DNA of 64,000 nucleotides, taken from positions 393,295 to 457,294 of the forward strand of contig JBAZWB010000001.1 of assembly GCA_041660605.1 (NCBI GenBank), written 5' to 3'. Source of the DNA: Patescibacteria group bacterium (GTDB lineage: Bacteria > Patescibacteriota > Patescibacteriia > UBA10025 > JAHIVO01). The first letter of the stretch is position 1. Every line of letters begins with the position of its first letter. Below the pieces are notes generated by a model. The model was given only the letters and a program-made list of their open reading frames with translations, did not search any database and had not been told where the DNA came from. The translations under genes were made by a program, and so were the position numbers. Shown here piece by piece: positions 3,122 to 62,301 of this stretch.

Positions 3122-5503
3122 TTGATAAAATATTTTTATTATACTATGCCTAATCAAAAAAAGATTATGCCAAAGTTACTAGATACGAATACAAAAACAC
3201 AGGAGCAATTGAAAATAAAAATTTCCATCGCCGCCATGATGCTGGCAGCTGTTGGCTTGGGCTTTGCTTTTGGTATTATTCTTATTGACTTAGCATCAAA
3301 AAAAATACCCACGGTTAGCACCGGAAATTTTACCGTCAGTTTTGCCGCCAATGAATATAAGTTTTCAGAAATTGACAGCAAGGGAAATCAGACAGTGTCA
3401 ATGGTTGATTTTGAAAATCGCGGCCTACCCGGAGAACCAGATATGCCAATGAAAACATATTCCATACTCTTGCCTCCCGGAGCTCAATTTATTAAGGCGG
3501 ACATTATCTCAATGGAGAGCAGTCTAATAGATGGAAGTTATGTAATAAAAGAGGCGCCGACGCCTCAACCTATCATAGATTCGACAAGCGCGGATATACT
3601 ATACAAGGAGGCGGCAGAAATCCCGCCGAAGCAGGAAATTTATTCTTCAGACCAGCTTTACCCTGTGAATGTTATTGAAACAAAGCAAGCCGGGCAAATG
3701 CGAAAGTATAATATTCAAGAGATAACTTTTAATCCCTTTCAATATCAGCCGTTATCGAAAAAATTGACGTTTATTTCAAAAGTAAATCTTAGGATTACTT
3801 ATAATATTGGAGAGGCGCCAACCGCAAGCCGGCTTGCAGATACCGTTCTAGATGACTCGGTTAGAGAGTTAGCTTATAATTTTAATCAATTTGGAGATCA
3901 ATACGATACTAGCCTGGTCAATACGAAATCACCGGCAGAATTATACGATTATGTCATAATCGCTCCGCAAACAATGGCGTCATCTGCCGGGATGAATACG
4001 CTTGTACAGTATCGACAAAATCAGGGGCATAGTATTCATTTGGAAACAACTGAATATATAAGCTCAAATTATTCAGGTGCTGATCTTCCGGAAAAAATTC
4101 GAAATTATTTAATTTCACACTATCTTGATTGGGGAATAAAAAATGTGGCCCTTGTTGGTTCTAATCAGGTTATCCCTATGCGGGTTTGTGATGGGTACCT
4201 GCCTACCGATTATTACTACCAGGAGCTGACAAGTGTCTGGGATGGATCTCAAATGTATTGCGGATATCACGACTGGTATCCTGAAGTATTCGTCGGAAGA
4301 ATCCCTATTGATGATACCGCGCAATTTGCGCAATATATTGACCGTGTTATTACATATGAAAATACCACTGACCCTTACATCCGGAAAGCTTTACTCGCAG
4401 CAGGCATCTGGGAAACAAATAATGATGCCGCGCAAACAGCTGAAAATTTGCGGATCGGTTTGTTTCTCCCCGCTGGTTACCAAGCCGATAGATTATATGA
4501 AGAAACCGGAACGTGCCCGGCGACATTACTTCACGATGATGATGTTAGTCAGGTGAATGTTCTTGACAATTGGCAAAACGAACATTACGGCATAGTGTAT
4601 CTCGCTGCTCATGGCAATCCTGCTCGTTTATGTTCTAAACCCTGTCCGCAACCCGATCAGGGCTGCCAAACAACCTTTGTCAAAGATGATATATCGCAGT
4701 TAAATGGCGATTATCCCTCGGTAGTATTTAGCCTGGCGTGCAGTACCGCTGATGTGTCTGATCCTGGCAATCTCGCGTACAGTTTGGTAAGGCAAAAAGT
4801 TGCGTCATATGTGGGTGCTACAAAAGTGGCATTTTCTAGTGATCAAATCTATCAATTGTATTTTTCAAATTTACTGCAGCAGGAGCGACGAAATGCAGAA
4901 GCCCTGGCTTTAGCGAGGCTATCAGTGACGGAAAACTATAACGGACAATATCAAGCATTAAATTATAATTTATACTCCGAACCATTACTGAAAGTCAGAA
5001 CTTTTTGTGAGGACGGAACAGTCGGCGGCCAGTGCAGCGGGCAGCAGTATTGTGATAAAGGTCAGCTGGTCAGTGACTGCCGGCAGTGCGGTTTTACTTG
5101 TTCGGGTGGGCGGGTATGCGATATAGGAAGCGGTCAGTGCATTATGCCCCCTGCCTGTAATATTGATAGTGACTGCGCTGATAGCATTGCCTGCAACGTA
5201 GATCATTGTAATTTTTCAGGAACGATCTCGGCGAGTTGTTCGCACACCGGCGGAACCTGCTGCGCTAACGGTACGTTGCCCGGGCAATGCGACAGCGCGG
5301 GAGGGAGTTTCTGTACATCCAATCTTACCCTTGATGATAACAGATGCCCTATCTGCGGCTGTAAGCAGTTCTACAAGTGCAATCCCGGCAGCCCGAAAGG
5401 GACAGGGTCGTGCGTCCCGGATCCCACGACCTGCTGTCTGGAAGAAACTCCGACCTGCAAACTGCCCCTCTGCCCCTGGCGGCCCCTGAATACGGTAAAT
5501 TAA
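3122..5503 (+). CDS. Membrane-anchored clan-CD cysteine peptidase, gingipain (C25)-like, with a Cys-rich C-terminal domain of about 45 Cys
   Basis: N-terminal TM; propeptide-like region; caspase-like His-Gly (YLAAHGNP) and Ala-Cys (FSLACSTAD) dyad spacing; the last roughly 170 aa are extremely Cys-rich. Confidence 0.5.
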   Translation: MIKYFYYTMPNQKKIMPKLLDTNTKTQEQLKIKISIAAMMLAAVGLGFAFGIILIDLASKKIPTVSTGNFTVSFAANEYKFSEIDSKGNQTVSMVDFENRGLPGEPDMPMKTYSILLPPGAQFIKADIISMESSLIDGSYVIKEAPTPQPIIDSTSADILYKEAAEIPPKQEIYSSDQLYPVNVIETKQAGQMRKYNIQEITFNPFQYQPLSKKLTFISKVNLRITYNIGEAPTASRLADTVLDDSVRELAYNFNQFGDQYDTSLVNTKSPAELYDYVIIAPQTMASSAGMNTLVQYRQNQGHSIHLETTEYISSNYSGADLPEKIRNYLISHYLDWGIKNVALVGSNQVIPMRVCDGYLPTDYYYQELTSVWDGSQMYCGYHDWYPEVFVGRIPIDDTAQFAQYIDRVITYENTTDPYIRKALLAAGIWETNNDAAQTAENLRIGLFLPAGYQADRLYEETGTCPATLLHDDDVSQVNVLDNWQNEHYGIVYLAAHGNPARLCSKPCPQPDQGCQTTFVKDDISQLNGDYPSVVFSLACSTADVSDPGNLAYSLVRQKVASYVGATKVAFSSDQIYQLYFSNLLQQERRNAEALALARLSVTENYNGQYQALNYNLYSEPLLKVRTFCEDGTVGGQCSGQQYCDKGQLVSDCRQCGFTCSGGRVCDIGSGQCIMPPACNIDSDCADSIACNVDHCNFSGTISASCSHTGGTCCANGTLPGQCDSAGGSFCTSNLTLDDNRCPICGCKQFYKCNPGSPKGTGSCVPDPTTCCLEETPTCKLPLCPWRPLNTVN

Positions 5504-15287: not shown

Positions 15288-15581
15288 CTAGAAGTTTCTT
15301 GAACCGCCGAAATTGCCGCGCGGTGGCCTTTCTTTCATTGGCCGAGCTTCATTGACGATGATTGAGCGGCCTTCGAAATCCTTGCCATTGAGAGTATCAA
15401 TAGCAGTTTTGGCCTCTTCATCCGTGCTCATTTCCACAAAGCCGAAACCTTTTGACCGTCCGGATACCCTGTCAATGATGACATTGGCGGATTCCACTGT
15501 GCCGGCCTGAGAAAAGAAATCTCTCAGCTGGTCGTCGGTAACACTATAGGATAGGCTTCCTACGAATAATTTCTTTGCCAT
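15288..15581 (-). CDS. RRM-type RNA-binding protein (RNP-1 and RNP-2 motifs) with a Gly/Arg-rich tail
   Basis: LFVGSL (RNP-2) and KGFGFVEM (RNP-1). Confidence 0.9.
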   Translation of the reverse strand: MAKKLFVGSLSYSVTDDQLRDFFSQAGTVESANVIIDRVSGRSKGFGFVEMSTDEEAKTAIDTLNGKDFEGRSIIVNEARPMKERPPRGNFGGSRNF

Positions 15582-16141
15582 TTTTTTTCGCTTGATTTTA
15601 ATGGTTAATTATCGCTATCGTTTTAGGAAGACCTTTTTCATCCCCCGACTTAACTTTTCGTAAGAGGCGGGAGCGTCCTCTAATGTTACCATTAGATAAG
15701 TCCTAAAAAGAATAACAGTTTGATACTATCAAAGGAGGCCTCTTTTGTCAATATAGGCCGTATTTATAGAATAAAAAAGCGCGGAACCCTTCAAACAAGC
15801 TCCGCGCCAATCAGTCACAATTGACCGATAATCACTCCTTTCGCTAAGGCAGAGAGCAAACAAGTGAATAGCGACGCCGGCTGCTGATATTTACCATTCT
15901 GTTTTCATTTACGGGTAACTGACTTCAGAGAAAGGAAGACCATAATGAATAGAGTCGTTACACTATGCTAACAGCCGACGAGTAAATTTTAGCACTATTG
16001 GGCGGACAGGTGAAGGGGAGTAATATTGGGAAATCGTTATGCACAGTTGACCGTTTTAGAGCTACAATCTATACTTAATATGTAAATAGAAGCCTTCCCC
16101 AAAGTATTTTTGGTGAAGGTGTTTTTAATGTAAATTCAATG

Positions 16142-16182
16142 TTTGACTACATCAGGTACTAGTATTAGGGTTAAAGTATAAG
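16142..16182 (+). repeat. Copy 1 of a ~40-bp shared upstream element (TTGACT...GGTACTAGTATTAGGGTTAAAGTAT)
   Basis: About 90 percent identical to the copy at 17191-17232; lies upstream of the 16346 gene. Confidence 0.6.
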
Positions 16183-16345
16183 ATTAATAAATTAAAAACA
16201 ACTATGGAAAACCAACCAAACCGGTAAATAAGACCAGGTGGATAGTGTTTGTAATGAAATAACTTATCCGCATATTCATCGATTAATAAAGTGTTTATTT
16301 GGTACAATGAAATTAACAAGTTATTGTTAAACAATCAACCCTGAT

Positions 16346-17056
16346 ATGGTGATTCATCCACAAAGTAATAGATCGCTAACAGCCCCATTTCTAGTGATAG
16401 TTTGTACTTTTAGTTTCACCGCAATTCTTGTTGTTTGTATCTTTATATACTTGATGTTTTATCAGGATTGCATCGACAACCCCCAAGAAAAATCGATACA
16501 GGTATTTACTGAGGTTCCTAAATACAGTATTGAAAATTTTAAATGGGCAACAATACAATATAATACCGGCAAGGATTATGCGATTGAATTAAAGGTTCCA
16601 AAACATTGGGACGCAGAAGTGTCGCAACAAGCTTTAAGTGAGCGCGACAATCTACTATTTGCTCAGGGTGCCGTAAGTCATCCAGATATTCACGCTTCCG
16701 TACAAGTTCGCTACTATCATAATTCTGAATCTTTTGAAAATTGGATATCAAAGCATAAGCTAGAGTACGAGTTACCACAGTGGGCAGGAACTCAATTTAT
16801 TGAGGAGGATATTGTGTATAATAATGTAAAATACAAAAAGTTTAGCCCTGAGGGGAGAAATTATGGATTTTTTTTCATTCCAAAGAATGACGGTGTGTAT
16901 CAGATTGAATTTGGCGTTGGAGGCTGGTCTGATTTTACGAATGTTGAAATAAGTCAAGAAGCATTCCCTTCTTCTTATGAGATCGTACCGAGGGTACTAG
17001 GTTCTTTACGCTTCGTTCCTGCTAGTGTGGGTAATAATGATGATTCAGAATGGTAG
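16346..17056 (+). CDS. Hypothetical protein with an N-terminal TM anchor
   Basis: 236-aa ORF with a signal-anchor TM then a globular domain; the TAG stop is followed by about 46 in-frame protein-like codons. Confidence 0.5.
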   Translation: MVIHPQSNRSLTAPFLVIVCTFSFTAILVVCIFIYLMFYQDCIDNPQEKSIQVFTEVPKYSIENFKWATIQYNTGKDYAIELKVPKHWDAEVSQQALSERDNLLFAQGAVSHPDIHASVQVRYYHNSESFENWISKHKLEYELPQWAGTQFIEEDIVYNNVKYKKFSPEGRNYGFFFIPKNDGVYQIEFGVGGWSDFTNVEISQEAFPSSYEIVPRVLGSLRFVPASVGNNDDSEW

Positions 17057-17190
17057 ACTTACCAATATTCAGAATCCGGATTGTTGTTAAGGTATCCAAA
17101 AGACTGGATAGTTGAGAATAAAAGAGCCTTTTTTATAATAAGCAGTCAGTTTCTCACAATAACAAAGGTATTTTTATATAAATTTTAAAT

Positions 17191-17232
17191 TTGACTGCAT
17201 TAGGGTACTAGTATTAGGGTTAAAATATCAAC
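17191..17232 (+). repeat. Copy 2 of the shared upstream element
   Basis: Same motif TTGACTGCAT..GGTACTAGTATTAGGGTTAAAATAT, upstream of the 17399 gene. Confidence 0.6.
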
Positions 17233-17398
17233 ACATTGAATACCAACTCATTAAAATCGATTAATATTTCACATATTTAATCACTAATCAATAAAAACAA
17301 AACTTATTACATTGGAGGGATGCACTTTGACAATTTAACTTCAGAATCAATCTTTACTCTAGTACTTCAAAACAAAATCCCTGAAAGGAGGGATTGCT

Positions 17399-19477
17399 AT
17401 GCTAAAGTTGTTAACTAACCTAGGTACTACGGTTCTCGTAGTAATTCTATTATCTGTAACGGCAATTGCAGGTGATACATGGCTGCTTACATTCCCGCTT
17501 GATGTACAACCGGATAGTTGGCCATGTAATTTCCAGTGTCATGACAATCGTCCCGGAGGAAATGACTACAGCTGTAATACAGGTACAAATGTATTAGCTG
17601 CAGAGGATGGATACGTTCATATTCACGACGATCCTGACGGTTATGGCACGTATCTCACGGAAGACATAGCCTATTATCAATTGTATTACGGGCATTTGTC
17701 GGAAGTATTAGTCAATGAGGGACAATTTGTTACCCAAGGAAGTGTGATTGCGAAAAGCGGGAGCACTGGTTGGTCCACGGGTCCACATCTTCATTTCGAA
17801 GTACGATCAAGCAATATGCCAATTGATCCGTATAATATTAATCACTGGCTCTGGGTTTCACCGCCACCATTCAATCCGGTAACTCTTTATTCACAGCTTG
17901 CATATTCTGGTACCTGCGTCGGTAAGTCCCACAGCAATACCCTAGTACTTCTACCGGGTTCTTCCGCAGAATGCTGGATTGATTTCAAGTGTAACCCGCC
18001 ATTCTATTGGTCAAGTAATGGGAATAGTTCGCATTATGTAGCACTGCATTCGGTAGCTAGTAACTGGACTGACATGGAAGACTCGCCGGTGATTACAGGC
18101 ACTACTAATTTGCTGGATGATGATGGTAGTACAGCGGATCCGAATGGTGTAGCTCGATTTAATTTCACCATAACTGCTCCACAGTCGCCCGGCACATATA
18201 CACTTCGTGCAAGAGTGTATCATCCACATTCAGGTACTTTTATCACAGGCACTGGTCCTGATGTTACATTTAATGTTCAGGTAGTCAGTCCACCGCAAGA
18301 AAACACCAGTTACTACCCTATTTCCGGTGACTTCAACGGTGACGGCCTGGCTGATGTGGGACTTTACGATCAGATAACCGGCAACTGGTACATAGCTTTG
18401 CACAGTTCGACTTCAAACCGCTTCATTCCACAAGCCGAACCCTGGCTCACTGGCTGGGGAACCGGCATCGGCAACTACTTGCCAACCAGTGGTGACGTTG
18501 ATGGTGATGGATTGTGGGATTTAATACTCTACCAGCCAGTCAATGGCCGGTGGGCAGTAGCCAAAAACTACGGCGGTTATTTCGCCCAGCTTAATGGAAC
18601 TTATATCCATGGCTGTTGGTATGAGAACTGGGGCACCGGCGAAGGAGTCTACTTTCCTGCAAGTGGTGATGTTGACGGTGACGGATTATGGGATGCCATA
18701 CTTTATCAGCCTGTTAACGGAAGATGGCCGGTAGCAAAGAACTACGGTGACCACTTCACCCAGATCAACGGGCCATATGCGCGCGGCTGTTGGTACGAGA
18801 ACTGGGGAACCGGCGTGGGTGTCTACCAGCCAGTCTCTGGAGATGTTGACGGTGACGGTTTATCTGACATTTTACTCTACCAGCCAGTCAATGGCCGGTG
18901 GGCAGTAGCCAAAAACTACGGCGGTTATTTCGCGCAATTGAACGGACCGTATGTTCGAGGATGTTGGCTGGCTAACTGGGGAACAGGCGTTGGAGTTTAC
19001 ATGCCCATCAGCGGTGACGTAGACAATGACGGCTTGACTGATATTCTGCTTTACGTTCCAAGTACCGGTAGATGGGCAGTTGCCAAGAACTATGGTGGCT
19101 ATTTTGCCCAGATCAATGGCCCTTATATTAATGGCTGCTGGCTGGTGAACTGGGGCATTCAGAACGAAGGTACCCCGAAAATCGCTACTCCAGAAACGGA
19201 GAATCCGCTTCCGGCAGACTTCACTCTTTCCCAAAACTATCCGAATCCATTCAATCCGGTCACGAATATCAGCTATTCATTACCGGTTGCTGCCGATGTC
19301 TGCCTGGAAATTTACAACGTCCTGGGGCAGAGAGTAGCCACGCTGGCAAATGAACGGCAGGTGGCTGGTGAGCACAGCATTCAGTGGGATGCTCATCAGT
19401 GTCCGTCCGGAATCTATTTCTACAGGTTAACAACAGATCAGGTTACTGAAACGAAAAAAATGATCATTCTGAAGTAA
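17399..19477 (+). CDS. Secreted M23 (LytM/lysostaphin-type) metallopeptidase with 5 FG-GAP-like repeats and a T9SS (Por) C-terminal sorting domain
   Basis: Signal peptide; HIHDDPD and GPHLHFEV M23 motifs; five SGDVDGDGLxD-type repeats; C-terminal QNYPNPFNPVTNISYSLP...LEIYNVLGQRVATL...SGIYFYRL sorting-tail signature; strong SD aaggaggg. Confidence 0.8.
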   Translation: MLKLLTNLGTTVLVVILLSVTAIAGDTWLLTFPLDVQPDSWPCNFQCHDNRPGGNDYSCNTGTNVLAAEDGYVHIHDDPDGYGTYLTEDIAYYQLYYGHLSEVLVNEGQFVTQGSVIAKSGSTGWSTGPHLHFEVRSSNMPIDPYNINHWLWVSPPPFNPVTLYSQLAYSGTCVGKSHSNTLVLLPGSSAECWIDFKCNPPFYWSSNGNSSHYVALHSVASNWTDMEDSPVITGTTNLLDDDGSTADPNGVARFNFTITAPQSPGTYTLRARVYHPHSGTFITGTGPDVTFNVQVVSPPQENTSYYPISGDFNGDGLADVGLYDQITGNWYIALHSSTSNRFIPQAEPWLTGWGTGIGNYLPTSGDVDGDGLWDLILYQPVNGRWAVAKNYGGYFAQLNGTYIHGCWYENWGTGEGVYFPASGDVDGDGLWDAILYQPVNGRWPVAKNYGDHFTQINGPYARGCWYENWGTGVGVYQPVSGDVDGDGLSDILLYQPVNGRWAVAKNYGGYFAQLNGPYVRGCWLANWGTGVGVYMPISGDVDNDGLTDILLYVPSTGRWAVAKNYGGYFAQINGPYINGCWLVNWGIQNEGTPKIATPETENPLPADFTLSQNYPNPFNPVTNISYSLPVAADVCLEIYNVLGQRVATLANERQVAGEHSIQWDAHQCPSGIYFYRLTTDQVTETKKMIILK
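18322..19190 (+). repeat. Intragenic tandem array of about 5 units of roughly 175 nt, with about 58-nt blocks identical between units
   Basis: ctctaccagccagtcaatggccggtgggcagtagccaaaaactacggcggttatttcgc occurs at about 18528 and again at about 18880. Confidence 0.7.
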
Positions 19478-19498
19478 CCTTCCCTAAATCACAATCAA

Positions 19499-19531
19499 CC
19501 CTTGCGGCAGAAATGCTGCAAGGTTTTTTTA
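19499..19531 (+). terminator. Intrinsic terminator of the M23/FG-GAP gene
   Basis: ccttgcggcag-aaat-gctgcaagg perfect hairpin followed by ttttttt. Confidence 0.8.
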
Positions 19532-19586
19532 TCTGTTCATTTTATATATTAAATACGGCAGTTATGTGGTAAAAATCAACCAAGTC

Positions 19587-19614
19587 TTGACAATATTAAT
19601 TTTTAGGTTATACT
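19587..19614 (+). promoter_or_regulatory. Sigma70-like promoter (TTGACA, 16-nt spacer, TATACT)
   Basis: Near-consensus hexamers upstream of the 19689 gene. Confidence 0.5.
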
Positions 19615-19688
19615 ATATAGTTCAATAGTCTTAGTTCGCACATTATATTATTGAGATAATAAACAAAGGATAATTTCCTAGGAGGGAT

Positions 19689-20042
19689 ATGGATCCTAAG
19701 GTTGCAGTTTTAATTGGTGTGATGGCGGTAGTAGCGGTTATTATTGCTCTGCGAAATAAGCCAGGGCAGAATAAGCCGGTTGTTGTCGAGGCTGAACGGA
19801 TTCCTCGAACACTGGTAATCAGTGTCAGATGCATTGTGTACGAAGGCAATAAAACCCTTGCCAAGTATCCTAATGAACGCATCATCGTTGGTCGAGGGAG
19901 ATATCTTTTAGAGAAGGTTCCCAGCCTAGACAACTTTGGTGGCTGTTGGTTGGTGCTAGAAGGTACAATGCGCGGCCGGCCTATTGATGAATGGCTGGCG
20001 GAGGCTCAGGATAAAACATCCGAGTACCGTCTCGAATATTGA
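19689..20042 (+). CDS. Hypothetical small protein with an N-terminal TM helix
   Basis: Strong SD aggaggg; own promoter and terminator. Confidence 0.5.
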   Translation: MDPKVAVLIGVMAVVAVIIALRNKPGQNKPVVVEAERIPRTLVISVRCIVYEGNKTLAKYPNERIIVGRGRYLLEKVPSLDNFGGCWLVLEGTMRGRPIDEWLAEAQDKTSEYRLEY

Positions 20043-20078
20043 GACGAACACGATTACAATTCACCTTCACCGGTGAAG

Positions 20079-20108
20079 CCCGTTGGCAGATGTCGACGGG
20101 TTTTTTTA
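20079..20108 (+). terminator. Intrinsic terminator
   Basis: cccgttggcagatgtcgacggg hairpin followed by ttttttt, preceded by a second hairpin cttcaccggtgaag. Confidence 0.75.
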
Positions 20109-20159
20109 TTGAAAAAGCCATTAATTGCTAATGAATTTGCATATTTTTATAAAATGGCA

Positions 20160-20188
20160 TTGACAAATTGAAAGAAATGGAGTACACT
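20160..20188 (+). promoter_or_regulatory. Sigma70-like promoter (TTGACA, 17-nt spacer, TACACT) with an A/T-rich UP region
   Basis: Hexamers upstream of the Zn-ribbon gene. Confidence 0.5.
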
Positions 20189-20218
20189 AGTGGATAAAAT
20201 ATGTTTTGGGGAGGAAGT

Positions 20219-20509
20219 ATGTCATTTCTCGGAACGATCGTTGCGCACCTTGCGACAAGACCAATAACCCAATATGTTGATTCGACATCAAGTACTGGCA
20301 ATACTGGACAGCCTAAAGAATTACCCAGATGCCGTAAATGTGGCCAAAAGCATAAGGACGGGGAATCGTGTCCTTGTCCGCTTTGTCCTAAATGCGGCAG
20401 TGTTATGGAAGCAGCTGATAATAGTGGAGTGCTTCAGTGCTACCATAATGCTTACCATTGTCTGGTATGCGGAAACACTTTAAGGGTTAACGGAAAACAC
20501 AGGCGGTGA
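20219..20509 (+). CDS. Small Cys-rich zinc-ribbon protein; an alternative start exists at 20201
   Basis: CRKCGQK...CPCPLCPKCG...CYHNAYHCLVCG Cys clusters; SD ggggagga precedes the ATG at 20219. Confidence 0.5.
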   Translation: MSFLGTIVAHLATRPITQYVDSTSSTGNTGQPKELPRCRKCGQKHKDGESCPCPLCPKCGSVMEAADNSGVLQCYHNAYHCLVCGNTLRVNGKHRR

Positions 20510-20543
20510 AAAAAACTTCAAAACTTTTCACCGCTATTTTTTT
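20504..20543 (+). terminator. Intrinsic terminator
   Basis: gcggtgaaaa...ttttcaccgc hairpin followed by a T-run. Confidence 0.7.
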
Positions 20544-20604
20544 AGATAATTTATTTGAGTTTCCTACTCTTGCTTTTCTTTAAGTTGACGGTTAAAATTA
20601 ATTC

Positions 20605-20955
20605 ATGAATGAGATAAGTGAGTTAGCAAAAAAGATATTAAAATTCCGCGACGACCGGGATTGGGCGCAATACCATAAGCCCAAGGAACTGGCGGTTTCC
20701 ATCAGCATTGAGTCAGCCGAACTGCTGGAAAAATTCCAGTGGGAGCGGAAAAACAAACCGGAATACATTGCCGCCCATCGCCGGGAAATCGGCGAAGAAC
20801 TGGCTGATGTGATGATTTATTCGCTGTTATTGGCAGAGACGCTGGGTTTGGACGTGAAAAAAATCGTGGAAGAAAAGTTAAAGCATAACGAAAAAAAATA
20901 TCCCATTGCTAAGGCAAAAGGCAATGATATTAAATATACCGAACTGCAATCTTAG
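20605..20955 (+). CDS. MazG-like nucleoside triphosphate pyrophosphohydrolase (all-alpha NTP-PPase)
   Basis: EXXE...EELADV pattern typical of the MazG/YpjD family. Confidence 0.65.
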   Translation: MNEISELAKKILKFRDDRDWAQYHKPKELAVSISIESAELLEKFQWERKNKPEYIAAHRREIGEELADVMIYSLLLAETLGLDVKKIVEEKLKHNEKKYPIAKAKGNDIKYTELQS

Positions 20956-21021
20956 TTGTCTGCGGTTTTAATGTGTCGGTATTTTTTATAATCCCGATTT
21001 TTTAAGGCTGATGTTTTACTT

Positions 21022-32344: not shown

Positions 32345-33328
32345 ATGGTTTCATTAATAATCCCATTATTCGTTTTAGCGATAATAGTATTTGTTATCGT
32401 AGCTATGATGGCAGGGAAATCAAATATGCAAAAAACAAGCGTTATCCGGAGTGTTTATTTTTATTTAGCCTCGCTGGTAACTTTGGGCATTACAATCGGC
32501 TCACTGATTTTTTTAGTCAATCTGGGCCTGAAAACTTGGGTTTTTACCCAGGCTGAATCTTTGGATTTCCGGCTGGGGCAGCCGCCAATTTTGTATCTTG
32601 ATACCACTGCGACCGATGCCAGCGCTACCACAAAGCCGTTGGCGCTCGGACCGACTGTTTTGGATTGTAAGGACGGCTGCACGCTTTCTGAAATTCAAAA
32701 AGCCAGCATTGAACAGTGGGTGGGAAATTATAAGTCCTGGCTTAAGATCAAAGACAATCCCAACAGCGTCCCTCTGCGCAAAGCTATCAATGGTTTTTCT
32801 TTTTTGATAGTGGCGCTCCCGATTTTTATAATCCATTTTCGCCTGGTGCAGAAAGAAGCCAAACGGGACAATCCAGCCGGGCATAATCCGGTCAGGCCGG
32901 CGTATTTTTATTTTGTCTCCCTGGCGGCACTGGTCATGACGGTTGTTTCAGCCGGCATTTTAATTAACGTAGCCCTGAAAACCTGGGTGTTCCCCAGCGC
33001 GGCCGATACAGCCAATAATTTATTTAACCCGATGGTTGAAGATCCTTACAGCAAAGCCTCTGTTCAGAGCGTGGTTGATTGCGGAGAATCCTGCAAATTA
33101 CCGGCCGAGACCATTACTTTAGCCAAACAATGGATTATTGATTATAGTAATTGGAGTAAGGCTATTTCCAAAGGCAATAATACCTCCCAGCAGCAAGTGG
33201 CGGTTACCATCCCCTTTATTTTATTTGGCGTTCCGTTATTCTGGTATCATTGGTCTGTTGCCAGGAAAGAATCTAAAGACAGGAAAGAAGAAGGCCAGTT
33301 ACTGGACGAAAAAGAGAAAAAAATGTAA
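32345..33328 (+). CDS. Polytopic membrane protein with an internal tandem duplication, inserted between rplK and rplA
   Basis: Two homologous halves (LKTWVF...DCxxxC...W...S/NWxK...RKE/SK) separated by TM helices. Confidence 0.55.
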   Translation: MVSLIIPLFVLAIIVFVIVAMMAGKSNMQKTSVIRSVYFYLASLVTLGITIGSLIFLVNLGLKTWVFTQAESLDFRLGQPPILYLDTTATDASATTKPLALGPTVLDCKDGCTLSEIQKASIEQWVGNYKSWLKIKDNPNSVPLRKAINGFSFLIVALPIFIIHFRLVQKEAKRDNPAGHNPVRPAYFYFVSLAALVMTVVSAGILINVALKTWVFPSAADTANNLFNPMVEDPYSKASVQSVVDCGESCKLPAETITLAKQWIIDYSNWSKAISKGNNTSQQQVAVTIPFILFGVPLFWYHWSVARKESKDRKEEGQLLDEKEKKM

Positions 33329-39969: not shown

Positions 39970-40092
39970 ATGAAAAATTTTTCAGTACAAGTCGTTCAAC
40001 CTGAAACGCTCGGCACTCACCAAGGCCCGGGAAATCCCGGGATTTTTTTTATCTCCAATTTTTTTAGCGGTATTACAATGGTGTATGAATAA
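39970..40092 (+). CDS. Candidate 40-aa leader peptide (MKNFSVQVVQPETLGTHQGPGNPGIFFISNFFSGITMVYE) spanning the attenuator and overlapping the carA start by 8 nt
   Basis: Small ORF read directly from the sequence; contains the terminator hairpin and U-tracts; ends 5 nt inside carA. Confidence 0.35.
   Translation: MKNFSVQVVQPETLGTHQGPGNPGIFFISNFFSGITMVYE
40024..40051 (+). terminator. Intrinsic terminator/attenuator immediately upstream of carA
   Basis: gcccggg-aaat-cccgggc-like hairpin followed by tttttttt. Confidence 0.65.
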
Positions 40093-41170
40093 TAGAAGAA
40101 CTACAAAAGCAACTCTATTACTTGAAGACGGATCACGGTACACTGGCCGGGTATTCGGCTGCAAAAAACAAAGCGTGGCAGGTGAAATTGTTTTTACTAC
40201 CGGCATGGTTGGCTATTCAGAATCATTGACTGACCCGTCATATCGCGGTCAAATTCTTGTTATGACTTATCCGCTAATCGGCAATTATGGGGTTGAATGT
40301 AGTCAGGCACAATCGCGTTCTTTGGACGAATCTTTTGAGTCAGAGAGAATCCAGGCCAGCGCGCTCATAGTATCATCGCAAATAACCAAACCCAGTCATT
40401 ATAAATCAGCGCGAAGTCTTGAGCAATGGCTGGCCAGCGAGAAAATAATTGGTCTAGAAGGGATTGACACTCGTTCATTAACGCAGCGGTTGCGTGAACA
40501 TGGCACTATGCTGGCAAAAATTATAATTGATGATAACGATATTCCCTGGTTTGATCCGAATAAACAAAATATAGTTGAGCAGGTAAGCAGTCCGCGGATA
40601 CGAAGATACGGTTCACGCGGGCCGCATGTTGTTGTTATTGATTGCGGAGCAAAGCGGGGAATCATCCGCGAGTTATGCCAGCGCTCCTGCCGCGTAACGA
40701 GAGTACCATGGAATTATCCAGTCAGTACCATGCGGGGGATTGACGGCGTAGTGGTCTCAAACGGACCTGGCAATCCGGTTTATGCTTCTGAAACGGTTGA
40801 TGAATTGAAGCGCCTTATCAAATTGCGGATTCCCCTCTGGGGAATCTGCCTGGGACACCAGCTGCTGGCAATGGCTTTGGGTGCGCGGACTTACAAACTC
40901 GCTTATGGACACCGCAGCCAAAACCAGCCAGTGATTGATATTAAATCAGGCCGTGCTTTCATCACCAGTCAAAATCATGGATTTGCGGTTAGGGAATCGA
41001 CTCTGCCCAGTTCAGCCAGGCCGTGGTTCAGAAACGGCAATGACGGAACAAATGAAGGATTTAAACACAGCACTCAGCCTATATGGGGCGTGCAATTTCA
41101 TCCTGAGGCTTCCCCCGGGCCGCGCGATACCGCGTTTTTGTTTGATGAATTTATTAATTTATTAAAATGA
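40085..41170 (+). CDS. carA: Carbamoyl-phosphate synthase small (glutamine amidotransferase) subunit
   Basis: GICLGHQ catalytic Cys and the GATase class-I triad region. Confidence 0.9.
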   Translation: MNNRRTTKATLLLEDGSRYTGRVFGCKKQSVAGEIVFTTGMVGYSESLTDPSYRGQILVMTYPLIGNYGVECSQAQSRSLDESFESERIQASALIVSSQITKPSHYKSARSLEQWLASEKIIGLEGIDTRSLTQRLREHGTMLAKIIIDDNDIPWFDPNKQNIVEQVSSPRIRRYGSRGPHVVVIDCGAKRGIIRELCQRSCRVTRVPWNYPVSTMRGIDGVVVSNGPGNPVYASETVDELKRLIKLRIPLWGICLGHQLLAMALGARTYKLAYGHRSQNQPVIDIKSGRAFITSQNHGFAVRESTLPSSARPWFRNGNDGTNEGFKHSTQPIWGVQFHPEASPGPRDTAFLFDEFINLLK

Positions 41171-44100
41171 GCAAACATCCCCTAACGATATTACTTTTAG
41201 GCTCTGGCGCCTTAAAAATCGGCCAGGCAGGGGAATTTGATTATTCTGGTTCGCAGGCCATTAAAGCAATTAAAGCATGCGGTTACCGGGTTGTTCTGAT
41301 AAATCCAAATGTCGCTACTATTCAGACGTCAGACAGCTTGGCTGATGAGGTTTATTTTCTGCCAGTTGACGCTTATTTTGCTGAAAAGGTGATTACCGCG
41401 GAACGGCCATACGGCATTATGCTTGGTTTTGGCGGCCAAACAGCTCTTAACTGCGGGCTTGAATTAGACCGACGGGGTGTTTTGAAAAAGTATAGTGTTA
41501 AAGTTCTTGGGACGCCAATTAAAAGTATCCGTTTAACCGAGGACAGGGAACTGTTCGCGAATTTTATGGTACGCAACGGTTTTTGCGTGCCGCGTAGCAA
41601 AGCGGTAACGTCTGTTAAAGCAGCCCAGAGTGCGGCCAAACGGATAGGGTATCCGGTAATGATCCGCAGCGGATTTTCATTGGGTGGACTCGGTTCAGGC
41701 ATAGTGCAAACGCCTAGTGAATTGATTGCCATCGCTACTGCAGCGCTGGCTCACGCTCCGCAAATTCTCATTGAAGAATGCCTGCGCGGTTGGAAGGAAG
41801 TTGAGTATGAGGTGGTCAGGGACAGCAGCGGAAATTGCTGTACAATTTGCAATATGGAAAATCTTGATCCGCTTGGTATACATACGGGAGACAGCATTGT
41901 CGTAGCGCCATCCCAGACTCTTAACAACCGTGAGTACCATAGTCTGCGATCTATATCCATTAATGTAATTAAAAAGCTGGGTATTATCGGCGAGTGCAAT
42001 ATCCAGTTTGCCCTTGATCCAATTTCGGATAAGTATCGGATTATCGAAGTTAATGCCCGCCTTTCCCGTTCTTCCGCGCTCGCCTCCAAGGCTACAGGAT
42101 ATCCGCTGGCCGCGGTGGCAGCTCAGCTGGCGCTGGGGAAGCAATTAACAGAGATACGGAACGCAGTGACGAAAAAAACCCCGGCTTTTTTCGAACCCGC
42201 GCTTGATTATATCGTTTTGAAATTCCCGCGTTGGGATTTCTCCAAATTTCTCCATGCTGACCTGAGTATCGGTAGTCAGATGAAAAGCGTCGGTGAGGTG
42301 ATGGCCATCGGCCGAAGCTTCCCGGAAGTCCTCCAAAAAGCCATTCGCATGCTGGATATCGGCCGTGACAGCATATTAGATAAAAATCCGGATCCTGTCG
42401 CACTGGCTGACGCCGCTAAGCCGACACCGCAAAGAATTTTTTACTTGGCTGCCGCTTTATATCATGGCATTTCACCAGCTGTACTATCTAAGCGCACAGG
42501 GATTGACCGCTGGTTTCTCAGTCAAATCCAAGATATTACAAAATTACAAAAGCAGCTGCAAAGCTCTTTATTCAATCAGTTTAATAAATCAACCCTTTTG
42601 GAAGCGAAGCAATTTGGTTTCAGCGACTGCCTGCTTGGTAAACTCTGCGGAATGAGTAGCGATCAGATTCGCGCCAAACGCAAGCAATTTGATGTTTTGC
42701 CATATGTGAAACGCATTGATACGGTCGCGGCTGAGTTTCCCGCTCAGACAAATTATCTCTATTGCACTTATCACGCCACCGCTTCTGACCGGCTTCCCGA
42801 TAAACGAAAGTCGGCCGTGGTTATCGGGTCAGGGGTATACCGGATCGGATCATCCGTGGAGTTTGACTGGTGCGCAGTAAATGCGGCTGCTGAACTGCAC
42901 CGGCAGGGATTCAGTTCAATAATGATCAACTGCAATCCTGAAACTGTTTCAACTGACTATGATGTCAGTGATGCACTATATTTTGAGGAGCTGACGCTGG
43001 AGCGGGTTTTGGATATTTGTGATCACGAAAATCCTGAAGGTGCGGTGGTTTCAGTCGGCGGCCAGGTAGCCAATAATCTTGCTTTGGGTCTGGCCAAGCG
43101 GAGAATTAATTTGCTGGGCACCTCGGCGAAAGCCATTGATAACGCGGAGGATAGACATAAATTTTCCAAGCTGTTGGATCGTTTGGGAATCAAGCAACCA
43201 GCCTGGACTGAAGCGACAACGGCCGTCGCGACCGAGTCTTTTGCTGAACGCGTTGGTTTCCCGGTAATAATCCGGCCGAGCTATGTCCTTAGCGGATCAG
43301 CGATGAATGTGGCGACTAACATGAACCAGCTTCGCCTGTTCCTGCGTGATGCCGCGCTTGTTTCACCAGAGCATCCAGTTGTAGTTTCAAAATTTGAAAT
43401 TGACGCACATGAAATTGACGTTGATGCAGTAGCGCAGAATGGGAGGATATTGACTGCTATTGTTTCCGAGCATGTTGAAAATGCCGGCGTGCATTCGGGA
43501 GACGCAACGCTGGTCCTGCCCCCGCAGAAAGTTTATATTGAAACATACCAGCAAATTAAGGAAGCAGTTAATAAAATAGCCGCAGAGTTGCAGATAACCG
43601 GTCCATGCAATTTTCAATTTCTTGCCCGGGACAACCAGATAAAAGTGATTGAATGCAATTTGCGTGCTTCACGGAGCTTTCCTTTTGCCTCAAAGGTAAC
43701 CAATATTAATCTTATTAAATTGTCAATCCAGGCAATGGTCCTGCGTCAGGTGGCCCCTCATCCTGTGCCGCGCTTGCCTTACGTAGCAGTGAAGGCGCCC
43801 CAATTTTCTTTTCATCGGTTGACCGGCACTGATCCGATACTGCGTGTTGAGATGGCTTCAACCGGCGAAGTGGCCTCGTTCGGTCGGGATGTATATGAGG
43901 CATTTCTTAAATCAGTTTTGGCAACCGGCTTCCGCCTTCCTCGCCGGAGCATTCTGCTAAGTCTAGGCGGGGAGCATAATAAAATGAAACTGCTTGATGA
44001 AATTCAGTCTCTGGCTAACAGGGGATTCTATCTTTTTGCCACGGAGAATACTCATGAATTCCTGACCGCACGGGGGATTGCCAGCAAATTATTGCATAAA

Positions 44101-44370
44101 ATTCACATTACGAAAGAACCGAACATCAGGTCTTACCTTCAGCAGCATAAAATTGAGCTGGTCATAAATCTGGCACACCAGTTTGAGGGTGAAGTAATAC
44201 GCGATGATTATGTTATGCGCCGGTTAGCAATTGATTTCAATGTTCCTCTAATAACCAATCTGCAATTGGCGCAGCTATTTCTCCGTGCAATTCAGTGTAA
44301 AAATCTTGATGACCTTCAGGCAAAACCCTGGTCAGCATACCGGCCCTTAGTTAATGCGAAAAAATTATAG
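41167..44370 (+). CDS. carB: Carbamoyl-phosphate synthase large subunit
   Basis: Two ATP-grasp halves, oligomerisation and MGS-like domains over 1067 aa. Confidence 0.95.
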   Translation: MSKHPLTILLLGSGALKIGQAGEFDYSGSQAIKAIKACGYRVVLINPNVATIQTSDSLADEVYFLPVDAYFAEKVITAERPYGIMLGFGGQTALNCGLELDRRGVLKKYSVKVLGTPIKSIRLTEDRELFANFMVRNGFCVPRSKAVTSVKAAQSAAKRIGYPVMIRSGFSLGGLGSGIVQTPSELIAIATAALAHAPQILIEECLRGWKEVEYEVVRDSSGNCCTICNMENLDPLGIHTGDSIVVAPSQTLNNREYHSLRSISINVIKKLGIIGECNIQFALDPISDKYRIIEVNARLSRSSALASKATGYPLAAVAAQLALGKQLTEIRNAVTKKTPAFFEPALDYIVLKFPRWDFSKFLHADLSIGSQMKSVGEVMAIGRSFPEVLQKAIRMLDIGRDSILDKNPDPVALADAAKPTPQRIFYLAAALYHGISPAVLSKRTGIDRWFLSQIQDITKLQKQLQSSLFNQFNKSTLLEAKQFGFSDCLLGKLCGMSSDQIRAKRKQFDVLPYVKRIDTVAAEFPAQTNYLYCTYHATASDRLPDKRKSAVVIGSGVYRIGSSVEFDWCAVNAAAELHRQGFSSIMINCNPETVSTDYDVSDALYFEELTLERVLDICDHENPEGAVVSVGGQVANNLALGLAKRRINLLGTSAKAIDNAEDRHKFSKLLDRLGIKQPAWTEATTAVATESFAERVGFPVIIRPSYVLSGSAMNVATNMNQLRLFLRDAALVSPEHPVVVSKFEIDAHEIDVDAVAQNGRILTAIVSEHVENAGVHSGDATLVLPPQKVYIETYQQIKEAVNKIAAELQITGPCNFQFLARDNQIKVIECNLRASRSFPFASKVTNINLIKLSIQAMVLRQVAPHPVPRLPYVAVKAPQFSFHRLTGTDPILRVEMASTGEVASFGRDVYEAFLKSVLATGFRLPRRSILLSLGGEHNKMKLLDEIQSLANRGFYLFATENTHEFLTARGIASKLLHKIHITKEPNIRSYLQQHKIELVINLAHQFEGEVIRDDYVMRRLAIDFNVPLITNLQLAQLFLRAIQCKNLDDLQAKPWSAYRPLVNAKKL

Positions 44371-44873: not shown

Positions 44874-45524
44874 TTGAATAAAATTGTACTTTGGTTTCGG
44901 TATATGTTCAATTTCCAAGGGCTACCGGCAACAGGCGATCCGCGACAGGCTGACGTAGTCATCGTTCAGGCATTCGGTCGAAATGGATTCTCTGACCAGG
45001 AACTGAATATGCTTGGTAAACTAACTGAAGTTGAACAAATCAGTGATGTTGAGATGATGGATATCCTTCGTCAGTGGAATTTTGATCCAGGGCAATCAAA
45101 CAGGGAATTAGCCGAAGAGTGCCGCAGGATAATGGACAAATATAAATTGTCTGCTATCGTCCAATGGGAGATTGCTGTGGCATTTCCGACTGACTGGTAT
45201 GCCGCAAACAACCAACGTATTATCTGCCTTTGGCCATCAGCTGAATCATTACAGTATTTTTCTACCCGCAAGGTATTGGAAAATACTCTAGCTAAAATGA
45301 TAAAACGAAGGTGGTCATTGCCGATTGAATTGGCGCACCACGGCCAGATTCTCCGAGCCTATCTGATGGTCAGAAAAATTTTTGGAAACGCACCGGTTAT
45401 TCTATCGCCGTACCCAAAAAGCTTTGACCGCAAATCGGTTCAACCATGGACACGCAGTCGTTGGCGCTGGCTCTGCAGGGAAATCATTGTTCGTTGGCAT
45501 CATTTGCTAAAAAGATGGGTGTGA
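44874..45524 (+). CDS. Hypothetical protein (TTG start, strong SD); GC-richer than its neighbours
   Basis: 216-aa ORF preceded by aaggaggagagag; no confident family. Confidence 0.45.
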   Translation: MNKIVLWFRYMFNFQGLPATGDPRQADVVIVQAFGRNGFSDQELNMLGKLTEVEQISDVEMMDILRQWNFDPGQSNRELAEECRRIMDKYKLSAIVQWEIAVAFPTDWYAANNQRIICLWPSAESLQYFSTRKVLENTLAKMIKRRWSLPIELAHHGQILRAYLMVRKIFGNAPVILSPYPKSFDRKSVQPWTRSRWRWLCREIIVRWHHLLKRWV

Positions 45525-46522: not shown

Positions 46523-46551
46523 TTGACAATCAATATACTTCGTGCTAATAT
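46523..46551 (+). promoter_or_regulatory. Sigma70-like promoter (TTGACA, 17-nt spacer, TAATAT)
   Basis: Precedes the 46595 gene; the first of three similar promoter-gene-terminator units. Confidence 0.5.
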
Positions 46552-46594
46552 AGCAAGTCATTTGTACATTAAGCCCAAAGGAAGGAGGAACGTT

Positions 46595-46945
46595 ATGGTA
46601 TATTCTATTTGGGTAATCGGTCGCGACGAGCTGCCTATCAGTGTCGCTGATTTGCTTAGGGGGATATTTAAGCAGGCGACGATTGAGGTGGTACCTGTTG
46701 ATGATTTTCGGGATAAACCCGGAACTGCTGACCTTGCAGTGATCACCAACTATGACCTTGGCCAGGGTAAAAATGCCATTCAGTTAATGGCATCCCGACC
46801 GGATTTCAGTTATTTGTGGATGGTTAGTGGGGTAACCCGCCCTCTGGCTCAGCATGTGCCGAGCCACATTAGTCGACAAATAGTTGATAAACCGGCTAAC
46901 TCTCAGGAATTGGCCGAAGCAGTTACTCGCGCTCTGTGCATCTAA
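46595..46945 (+). CDS. Small receiver (CheY/REC)-like domain protein, degenerate
   Basis: IWVIGRDE...DLAVITNYDL...LWMVSG...DKP pattern resembles a REC fold; strong SD ggaggaacg. Confidence 0.35.
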   Translation: MVYSIWVIGRDELPISVADLLRGIFKQATIEVVPVDDFRDKPGTADLAVITNYDLGQGKNAIQLMASRPDFSYLWMVSGVTRPLAQHVPSHISRQIVDKPANSQELAEAVTRALCI

Positions 46946-47518: not shown

Positions 47519-48034
47519 TTGCGAAACAGCTTTACTATGCCAAGTGAGCACCATCATGTACGTCTCGCGGCATCGTTTGCTGCCATCTTCTTTGCCATCG
47601 GATGGGTACCGGTTGAGTTAATAGTTCCGTTTTTAGTGAAATTGTTCCAGCTTCGCGGACTTGTTTTTATCGCCTTGTCATTGCATAAGGCGATTTATGT
47701 GGTTGGATTCATACTTTCGCTAAATACGCTTCTCAACCATGCCAGCGGCAGGCGTTATCTTGAAAAACGCAAGTTTGGTCGATTTCTTCTGAAACTCTTG
47801 GGGCACAAAAACTCCGGACGTTTACACGGCTGGCGGCTAGTGGTTTATGAGATTTGGTATCACGCGGGTTTAGCGGTCTTCGGATTTTTTCCAATTTTTG
47901 TAAAATTTGCTATTGCACGCTGCTCCCTGTATCCCCGGTTTTCCGCGATTTCATGCGTGGTGACAGCTACTACCCTCGGTTCTTATCTGATTGTCTATTA
48001 TGGCGTTGATGTACTCAATTGGTTCATCGGTTAA
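47519..48034 (+). CDS. Hypothetical polytopic membrane protein (TTG start, SD aggaggtca) with a His-rich N-terminus
   Basis: 171 aa with 4-5 TM helices; the MPSEHHHVRL N-terminus is reminiscent of membrane-bound metal-hydrolase families (weak). Confidence 0.4.
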   Translation: MRNSFTMPSEHHHVRLAASFAAIFFAIGWVPVELIVPFLVKLFQLRGLVFIALSLHKAIYVVGFILSLNTLLNHASGRRYLEKRKFGRFLLKLLGHKNSGRLHGWRLVVYEIWYHAGLAVFGFFPIFVKFAIARCSLYPRFSAISCVVTATTLGSYLIVYYGVDVLNWFIG

Positions 48035-62273: not shown

Positions 62274-62301
62274 AAAATTTCCGTTTTTTTCAAAAACAAA
62301 A

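Follow-up and report, generated by a model that had tools for sequence, protein, structure and literature searches.

A T9SS-type C-terminal domain in a predicted peptidoglycan hydrolase family of Patescibacteria

How does a protein that ends in a type IX secretion system (T9SS) sorting tail come to be encoded in the small genome of a Patescibacterium, and what does the tail do there? The question is raised by a gene at positions 17399-19477 (+) of a 64-kb stretch of DNA from contig JBAZWB010000001.1 (in the following the window, all 64,000 nucleotides of it), whose product has 692 amino acids (aa). The C-terminal domains (CTDs) of T9SS substrates are treated as a hallmark of Bacteroidota and the wider Fibrobacterota-Chlorobiota-Bacteroidota (FCB) group and as a signal for crossing the outer membrane, and cells of the Candidate Phyla Radiation (CPR, Patescibacteria) are, to our knowledge, described as being without outer membrane and lipopolysaccharide (LPS). 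An earlier note on the sequence had considered a recent transfer from an FCB donor, possibly of a cell wall-lytic effector, a T9SS that the host has or had, or a chimeric assembly. Rather than being a fresh import or an artefact of assembly, the gene belongs to a small hydrolase family that is specific to Patescibacteria and long resident there, and we favour, with moderate confidence, the reading that it is part of a lineage-specific cassette for a Sec-exported, lectin-targeted peptidoglycan hydrolase, the CTD of which is selected for a T9SS-independent role.

The T9SS (Por) tail claimed in the earlier note is genuine. The type A CTD occupies aa 614-692 (19238-19474, +), with aa 614-690 of the 692 scoring 46.4 bits against Por_Secre_tail (PF18962, cut-off 27) and 50.1 bits against TIGR04183, the 'T9SS type A sorting domain' (cut-off 23). 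A custom hidden Markov model (HMM), built from 120 database CTDs together with the family's own and consisting mostly of non-CPR sequences, gives it 137.6 bits, and the CTDs of the family as a whole range from 57 to 138 bits, all but one reaching at least 95. The CTD is also the most confident part of the AlphaFold model, with a predicted local distance difference test (pLDDT) score above 90, and by sequence the PDB entries closest to it are two CTD chains of T9SS substrates, 8glk_D and 8glj_D. Identities of 50-65% connect it with many metagenomic CTDs, the few named ones coming from Balneolales and Ignavibacteria, so that by sequence an old, FCB-type ancestry of the domain is plausible.

The other domains recognized in the 692-aa product, an M23 peptidase and FG-GAP repeats, are likewise confirmed above curated cut-offs. 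The typical signal-like N-terminus is visible by eye over aa 1-24 (17399-17470, +), an n-h-c pattern with K3, a hydrophobic core and an AxA motif, cleavage being predicted at A22-I23-A24|G25; residues 2-24 form a helix in the AlphaFold model, and A24, G25 and D26 are invariant in the alignment of orthologues. The Peptidase_M23 domain (PF01551, aa 54-144, 17558-17830, +) scores 85.7 bits against a cut-off of 28.7. Its PDB matches are TagE, ShyA, LytM and lysostaphin (homologues to E 3e-15), in the Foldseek and structure comparisons its superposition with LytM, EnpA and lysostaphin leaves a root-mean-square deviation of 1.2-2.7 Å, and its best NCBIfam similarities are to Pgp3, ShyA, MepM and DipM.

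The active site, described before as canonical with its HxxxD and HLHFE motifs, stands in part. The Asp zinc ligand D56, the catalytic H99 and the HxH motif H130-L-H132 are invariant in five family members, but position -4 from D56 is P52, so that the HxxxD motif is missing, and the first zinc-binding His is displaced to the sole His nearby, H48 (H-x7-D), which lies in a low-pLDDT segment of the model. Among the orthologues, P0003 and P0004 carry HxxxD, and P0002 and P0005 carry H-x12-D. In the M23A subfamily (LasA), His and Asp can likewise be spaced further apart, so the H-x7-D copy may still be active.

Between peptidase and CTD lie two further modules. The middle all-beta domain (aa ~160-300, 17876-18298, +) shows the strongest conservation within the family, has no Pfam match in this copy and is probably an NBR1-like Ig fold: Foldseek matches it to NBR1 (4ole, E 7e-5), and N_BRCA1_IG (PF16158), with no match in the window copy, reaches E 0.2 in an orthologue and E 3.7e-5, below the gathering score, in the distant relative P0391. 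A model of the middle domain by itself is poor (pLDDT 52.9). It is followed by five FG-GAP repeats of ~58 aa, the blades of a beta-propeller (18311-19198, +), in the number expected from the earlier note; FG-GAP (PF01839) scores 43 bits (cut-off 22.1) and FG-GAP_3 (PF13517) 41.3 bits (cut-off 26.9), the latter in five stretches. Three tandem copies with a period of 174 nt and 72-73% identity (direct repeat D1, 18454-19101, +) mark the last blades, by their sequence, as recent tandem duplications, and the number of repeats differs among orthologues. The best Foldseek matches of the propeller are lectin propellers, namely UmbA4 (9oee) and the GlcNAc lectins PVL and AAL2.

How the gene came to its present genome can be judged from its relatives. 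NCBI lists the identical protein (P0001, 'MAG: peptidoglycan DD-metalloendopeptidase family protein [Patescibacteria group bacterium]') under two accessions, which belong to two contigs; the longer of these measures 960,449 bp. Among 5.8 billion protein clusters, the full N-terminal module was found in only four others, P0002-P0005, at 43-64% identity; these share the architecture, and three of the four are labelled Patescibacteria, on contigs of 79-651 kb. The same clusters held no close non-CPR relative of the module formed by M23 and middle domain, and a scan of 241 million metagenome records returned three family loci and added only one new fragment. Between window protein and orthologues, identity is highest in the middle domain (76-82%), followed by CTD (59-63%) and M23 domain (45-61%), and lowest in the FG-GAP region (30-39%). 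Because the CTD is thus kept more strongly than the propeller, and because every T9SS-typical motif is retained, we take the CTD to be under selection. Across six genomes, GC content at third codon positions (GC3) is 0.39-0.64 in the hydrolase genes and 0.27-0.65 in their flanks, and the two are correlated with r = 0.915; since GC3 tracks the flanking genes, long residence rather than fresh import is indicated.

More distant relatives preserve the same plan. A profile of only the middle domain, searched against 1.84 billion representatives, retrieved 163 proteins, from which ten were chosen that have a single match at ~aa 150-340, the same position as in the window protein. All ten end in a Por_Secre_tail, most with FG-GAP repeats in between, and eight begin with M23 or CHAP; P0370 has only the end of an M23 domain at its N-terminus, and in P0368 neither was detected. 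One cluster of these relatives is labelled Patescibacteria, with accessions of the same series as the window protein. P0138, considered as another CTD protein of Patescibacteria, was not used, as it clusters with P0244 on a contig labelled 'bacterium', the gene content of which is not obviously CPR.

Two loci, L036 (CHAP, 312-kb contig) and L002 (M23, 651-kb contig), are syntenic, with the common order LexA, a 265-aa membrane protein, mraZ, mraW, ftsL, penicillin-binding protein (PBP), murE ... hydrolase ... DUF2238, GIY-YIG, asparaginase and HisKA_7TM. The same slot is occupied by a gene with a CHAP head in L036 (10001-12574) and with an M23 head in L002 (10001-12055), while middle domain, FG-GAP repeats and CTD are alike; because these loci are syntenic, we conclude that one catalytic head was exchanged for the other while the chromosomal position stayed the same. 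The L002 copy looks split owing to a scaffold gap of 100 N inside its FG-GAP repeats, the region that carries the tandem copies in the window gene. In L032 the M23 gene directly follows the pair of LexA and the 265-aa protein, and the equivalent position of L002, between the membrane-protein gene and mraZ, holds a piece of CTD sequence interrupted by a stop codon (2476-2649), a pseudogene fragment that, judged from its sequence, remains from a copy lost or moved elsewhere. A further gene of the CHAP type, located on a contig of 887 kb (L034 5181-14341, L035 800-2578), adjoins a Fib_succ_major protein, a tyrosine integrase and a serine recombinase, together with a UvrD/OLD pair, DUF8370/8371, a type I restriction-modification system and, in the second assembly, a TraG/TrwB-like coupling protein. 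These surroundings look like a mobile or defence island and may show one route by which such genes move.

The hydrolase does not travel alone. In every other locus with upstream sequence (L001, L002 with two copies, L029/L032, L031, L034/L035, L036, L037 and L038 with two copies), a partner gene is found directly upstream, encoding a protein of 200-280 aa with one N-terminal transmembrane helix, an Asn/Thr-rich low-complexity stalk and a C-terminal domain of ~130 aa, which begins 'DTSGWKTYEN..GYS..YP..W' and belongs to no Pfam family. The partner may be an anchor or an immunity factor. In the window, its slot is filled by a gene for a 236-aa membrane-anchored protein (16346-17056, +; no Pfam family above cut-off, codon-usage z -4.7), which was rejected as a member of the partner family (0.6-1.9 bits). 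A relic of 43 codons directly behind it (17057-17185, +) retains the hallmark motif TYxxxxGxxxxYPxDW and, with a sub-threshold 9.7 bits against the partner-domain HMM, is the best match of the window (E 0.069 among 1151 open reading frames, ORFs); we propose that the partner gene of the window was replaced or has decayed.

From the observed architecture, conservation, partner linkage and long residence we infer the following mechanism. The hydrolase would be exported by Sec, its signal peptide being cut at A24|G25, and would be located at or beyond the cell surface, where the propeller and probably also the middle domain would direct it to wall glycans in the manner of lectins. The M23 head would cut the peptide cross-links of peptidoglycan, more likely those of another cell, the host or prey of an episymbiont, than those of its own septum, and the partner would act as surface anchor or immunity factor. 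The CTD, presumably inherited from an FCB-type ancestor gene and kept by purifying selection, would contribute to docking, anchoring or folding without an outer-membrane T9SS. Action on a foreign wall is favoured because the head was swapped, the repeats are recently duplicated and variable in number and the partner is immunity- or anchor-like, and also because the family is rare and patchy and one of its loci seems to lie on a mobile island. The role of a cell wall-lytic effector, which had been suggested before, is judged plausible. For the CTD, a T9SS-independent role such as docking to a partner, surface retention or folding is the most economical assumption, because the lineage is not known to have an outer membrane.

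Several points weigh against a targeted hydrolase of this kind with a T9SS-independent CTD. A role that is structural and nothing more does not account for the strong conservation of the T9SS-typical CTD motifs, and the division and cell wall (dcw) cluster just upstream of the gene in two genomes also fits a housekeeping function in division. Judged from its sequence, the window copy, with the displaced H48, could be weak or inactive like the LytM factors of EnvC/NlpD type. The function assigned to the partner is a guess, and the partner-family HMM does not detectably find the partner in the window.

Of the alternatives, the one that survives best is a housekeeping autolysin or division factor, which remodels or divides the wall of its own cell as do DipM, EnvC, NlpD and ShyA, with propeller and CTD providing surface retention; we regard it as somewhat unlikely. 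The organism makes peptidoglycan, with FtsW/RodA encoded at 58861-59970 of the window, the mraZ-mraW-ftsL-PBP-murE cluster is found 1-2 kb upstream of the gene in both L002 and L036, the M23 domain is closest to Pgp3, ShyA, MepM and DipM among NCBIfam families, and the displaced first His recalls degenerate LytM regulators. Yet D56, H99, H130 and H132 are all kept, and in the window, in L001 and in L038 the gene is situated away from the dcw cluster. The rare and patchy distribution is not that of a core gene, and the M23 to CHAP swap in the same slot, the atypical codon usage and the one locus in what looks like a mobile or defence island also argue against a housekeeping role.

A second group of explanations takes the CTD at face value. 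In its wider form, which we consider unlikely, the CTD would function as a signal for sorting, docking or attachment in Patescibacteria without an outer membrane, read either by a non-T9SS receptor, for which the conserved membrane-anchored upstream partner is the obvious candidate, or by the T9SS attachment machinery of an FCB host; either way it would act outside the canonical type IX pathway, and the hydrolase family would be a weapon from symbiont to host. In its stricter form, which appears quite improbable, it is a secretion or attachment signal served by a T9SS-like or otherwise CTD-recognizing machinery of the cell itself or by the T9SS attachment machinery of an FCB host. For a working signal speak the retention of all T9SS-typical motifs, the scores of 57-138 bits in every family member (all but one at least 95), the occurrence of the tail in 10 of 10 distant relatives and the membrane-anchored partner, which could be a receptor. 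T9SS-bearing organisms, however, carry tens of CTD genes, compared with a single one in the window and, over the 21 kb of L002, one gene and a fragment; the CTD HMM found no further CTD gene elsewhere in the window and none in 26 GyrB loci of related genomes. Equally, no T9SS family was present among the genes of the 64-kb window (of a genome of ~960 kb) in the family scans, and CPR cells are, as far as we know, described as lacking the outer membrane and LPS that serve the attachment of T9SS cargo. An FCB host is conceivable in so far as Patescibacteria have been proposed to associate with Bacteroidota (Chitinophagales; PMC9530719). The literature search found no paper linking CPR or Patescibacteria with T9SS or Por_Secre_tail.

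The window does encode a gingipain-like C25 peptidase (3122-5503, +; the NCBI start is probably 3167), which was considered as a PorU sortase and rejected, as it scores 20.7 bits with NF033707 against a cut-off of 420, a further point against a T9SS. The gene is located ~12 kb upstream of the hydrolase, and its product combines Peptidase_C25 and Propeptide_C25 domains with a membrane anchor at the N-terminus and a C-terminal region rich in Cys; the gene deviates in codon usage (z -5.9), and an identical protein is labelled Patescibacteria. The gene is present on two contigs, the longer of 904,720 bp. The nearest relatives of the product are an unlabelled protein (45%) and one from Aenigmatarchaeota (39%), followed by Thermoplasmatota, Zixibacteria and WOR-3; they represent generic gingipain-like proteases of DPANN and other archaea and of FCB bacteria with varying tails (dockerin, PKD, Por tail). 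The peptidase is a second 'FCB-flavoured' secreted hydrolase of this genome.

A third explanation, recent import of a T9SS cargo gene from an FCB donor with the CTD as undecayed baggage, starts from composition. The interval 16001-21000 is the outlier of the window in sliding 5-kb windows (tetranucleotide distance z 3.97, dinucleotide signature z 4.04), and the synonymous codon usage of the hydrolase gene (z -7.4) is the most deviant of the 56 window genes. The block of atypical codon usage extends from 16346 to 20509, with the RRM and MazG genes on either side native-like and outside it, and three of the five genes of the window that are led by a Shine-Dalgarno (SD) sequence are consecutive within the 16-21 kb block. 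The gene, previously described as GC-richer, shows no anomaly in this respect, since its GC content of 0.480 compares with a gene mean of 0.449 (standard deviation 0.042), while for GC3 the gene, with 0.456, stays under the mean of 0.492. The notion of an accessory island is therefore upheld for oligonucleotides, codons and SD sequences, but GC is ordinary, the RRM and MazG genes are native and the block is not a conserved unit: the genes for the 236-aa protein, a 117-aa protein and a Zn-ribbon protein were not found beside orthologues elsewhere, and the idea of a conserved island was rejected. A prophage or endolysin origin was rejected as well, as PHROGs gave only generic M23 and MazG matches and the island contains no integrase or structural genes.

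Besides this deviant signature and the clustering of SD-led genes, recent import could draw on the identity of the CTD (50-65%) to those of Balneolales, Ignavibacteria and unlabelled metagenomes, on the relative that adjoins an integrase and a Fib_succ_major protein, and on the decayed CTD fragment in L002. We nevertheless find it highly improbable, and the proposal of a recent transfer in the earlier note is not borne out. GC3 has ameliorated to each host genome over the range 0.27-0.65 (r = 0.915), the orthologues have diverged to 43-64% identity within genomes assembled from metagenomes (MAGs) of Patescibacteria, two of the loci being syntenic, over that divergence conservation is higher in the CTD than in the FG-GAP region, and the module of M23 and middle domain is without close non-CPR relative among the 5.8 billion clusters. 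A misassembly or binning chimera, in which an FCB fragment was joined into a CPR contig, would account for a composition that differs from the flanks and for the long spacers at the edges of the region, but is effectively excluded and almost certainly wrong, as P0001 and the C25 gene each occur on two contigs (the longer of 960 and 905 kb, respectively), the same architecture recurs in CPR neighbourhoods of at least seven other, independent assemblies, and GC equals that of the flanks.

The remainder of the window, by its gene family annotation, is a housekeeping stretch of a small genome, as expected for the reduced, SD-less, CPR-like core described before. It includes genes for RmuC, an F-type ATP synthase operon, a UvrD/PD-(D/E)XK helicase-nuclease, PheST, GyrB, NusG-L11-(DUF5671)-L1, a thymidylate block, GatB, CarAB, MiaA, MiaB, ThrRS, Maf, DnaE, FtsW/RodA, L25 and two TatD proteins; no tRNA and no Rfam family is present in the 64 kb. 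Among the nearest sequences, the window GyrB is 63-73% identical to those of Patescibacteria MAGs and 61-66% to those of Candidatus Uhrbacteria, an SD sequence of at least five nucleotides precedes only 5 of 56 genes, and the protein identical to the hydrolase carries a Patescibacteria label, by all of which sequence features the host genome is assigned to the CPR/Patescibacteria.

Six genes are located between atpC with a putative carbonic anhydrase (end 15133) and the helicase (start 21043), and the neighbours listed previously, an RRM protein, membrane proteins, a Zn-ribbon protein and MazG, are all found by profile annotation and ORFs. On the left flank, an RRM RNA-binding protein is encoded at 15288-15581 (-; RRM_1 82.9 bits, NF058537 109.9 bits, codon z -0.01), followed by the genes for the 236-aa protein and the hydrolase. 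Downstream of the hydrolase lies the gene for the 117-aa membrane-anchored protein (19689-20042, +; no family, codon z -2.7), with a promoter-like site, an SD sequence and a terminator (20075-20104) of its own. Next is that of the Zn-ribbon protein of ~96 aa (20219-20509, +; weak Zn-ribbon matches, codon z -3.8), where the ATG at 20219 comes after GGGGAGGA and the listed ORF begins at 20201. The right flank is formed by a MazG-like pyrophosphatase (20605-20955, +; PF12643 71.4 bits, codon z 0.65).

Expression signals of the hydrolase gene are well defined. The strong GGAGG ribosome-binding site noted earlier is the AGGAGG at 17386-17391 (+), 7 nt 5' of the ATG, and the L002 orthologue is likewise preceded by an SD sequence; the terminator behind the gene is also confirmed (19500-19530, +), with a 10-bp stem (19500-19523), a 4-nt loop and seven T. 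The spacers, given before as unusually long with ~650 and ~340 bp, are indeed long compared with the median of 68 bp, but measure 764 bp (15582-16345) and 342 bp (17057-17398) and, ranking second and ninth of 55 gaps, are not unique. An element of ~65 bp (repeat D8) occurs at 16117-16180 (+) and again at 17166-17228 (+), ~170-230 nt ahead of the 236-aa gene's start in the first case and of the hydrolase start in the second. Within it lies a 21-mer of which the window contains two exact copies, where chance would give none. By its sequence the element is probably a shared promoter or operator, and this common upstream element suggests co-regulation of the two genes.

In the 764-bp spacer, a non-coding RNA was considered and rejected, as no Rfam family reached its gathering threshold and the matches at E < 1 were no more than noise resembling terminators; the minus-strand fold has a z of -1.78. 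A strong intrinsic terminator on the minus strand (15778-15808, 12-bp stem and T-run) lies just upstream of the promoter-like site of the RRM gene; no annotated gene ends there, and upstream of it is only a doubtful 60-aa ORF (16152-16334, -).

Some further features of the window deserve mention. Three hypothetical genes (44874-45524, 46523-46945 and 47519-48034) have no Pfam, NCBIfam or PHROG family and atypical codon usage, and two of them are among the five SD-led genes; in this genome, an SD sequence seems to be a sign of an accessory gene. TatD-family DNase and DUF3048 genes form tandem paralogue pairs at 287-1960 and 61197-63468, respectively. A gene for a 23S rRNA intervening-sequence protein (PF05635, 26079-26438) with very low GC (0.30; GC3 0.225) lies between pheS and pheT, and a homologue is also present near the hydrolase in L002. 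The gene of a DUF5671 membrane protein (32345-33328) is placed between those of the ribosomal proteins L11 and L1, and carA and carB for carbamoyl-phosphate synthase (40085-44370; codon z -2.0 and -3.3, mildly atypical) have been kept in this small genome.

Each domain of the hydrolase is of a known kind, and PGAP annotation already calls the protein an M23 endopeptidase, with one relative entered as a 'T9SS type A sorting domain-containing protein'. New, as far as the literature search shows, are a conserved family of wall hydrolases in Patescibacteria with T9SS-type tails, the exchange of the catalytic head in situ, the linked partner gene and, by implication, a function of the CTD outside canonical type IX secretion. 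The CTD has been kept through deep divergence, head swaps and hosts of 37-54% GC. If it has a second, T9SS-independent job, this bears on how CTD hits in metagenomes are read; alternatively, there is an interaction between these ultra-small symbionts and hosts with a T9SS that has so far escaped notice. The cassette of partner and lectin-targeted hydrolase is a candidate for the breaching or remodelling of cell walls by CPR episymbionts, a process so far poorly understood.

Compared with type A cargo of the T9SS, such as RgpB of Porphyromonas gingivalis and the substrates of Flavobacterium johnsoniae with the CTDs 8glj and 8glk, the hydrolase shares a terminal beta-sandwich of ~80 aa with the motifs PNPF..., GQ.V and GIYFY and a final K, and its N-terminus, judged by eye, looks like the Sec signal of such cargo. 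In contrast to that cargo, its host is a Patescibacterium, of a lineage not known for an outer membrane, LPS or T9SS, with apparently few CTD genes per genome. With M23 bacteriolysins and autolysins such as lysostaphin, LytM, zoocin A, EnpA and ShyA it has in common the M23 fold, the HxH motif, the catalytic His, the Asp ligand, wall-targeting modules separate from the catalytic domain and, as predicted, secretion; SH3b, LysM or PG_binding domains target those enzymes, a task that here would fall to a probably NBR1-like domain and to an FG-GAP propeller, and the window hydrolase in addition shows the shifted zinc His (H-x7-D) and the T9SS CTD.

For the repeat region, the best structural matches of the model point to FG-GAP/integrin-like lectins, PVL of Psathyrella velutina, AAL2 of Agrocybe and UmbA of Streptomyces, which bind GlcNAc or cell-wall polymers, the lectin spokes of Umb aiming a toxin at the target cell. 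Unlike PVL with seven blades, the propeller here has five of 58 aa, sequence identity to the lectin matches is 13-18%, and ligand binding is predicted. LytM-domain division factors (EnvC, NlpD, DipM) resemble the family in the M23 fold, the proximity to dcw genes in two related genomes and the non-canonical first metal ligand, but have lost several catalytic residues and are without propeller and CTD, whereas four of the five catalytic residues are invariant in the family of the window.

A parallel in evolutionary terms is offered by the peptidoglycan hydrolases of archaea, zoocin A-like M23 enzymes of Halobacteria, which were built by domain shuffling and horizontal transfer (PMC12356512). 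Like these, the hydrolase described here is a wall hydrolase in an unexpected lineage, with catalytic and binding domains of mixed origin and a patchy distribution; distinct from them are the lineage, the binding modules and the T9SS tail, which the archaeal enzymes do not carry.

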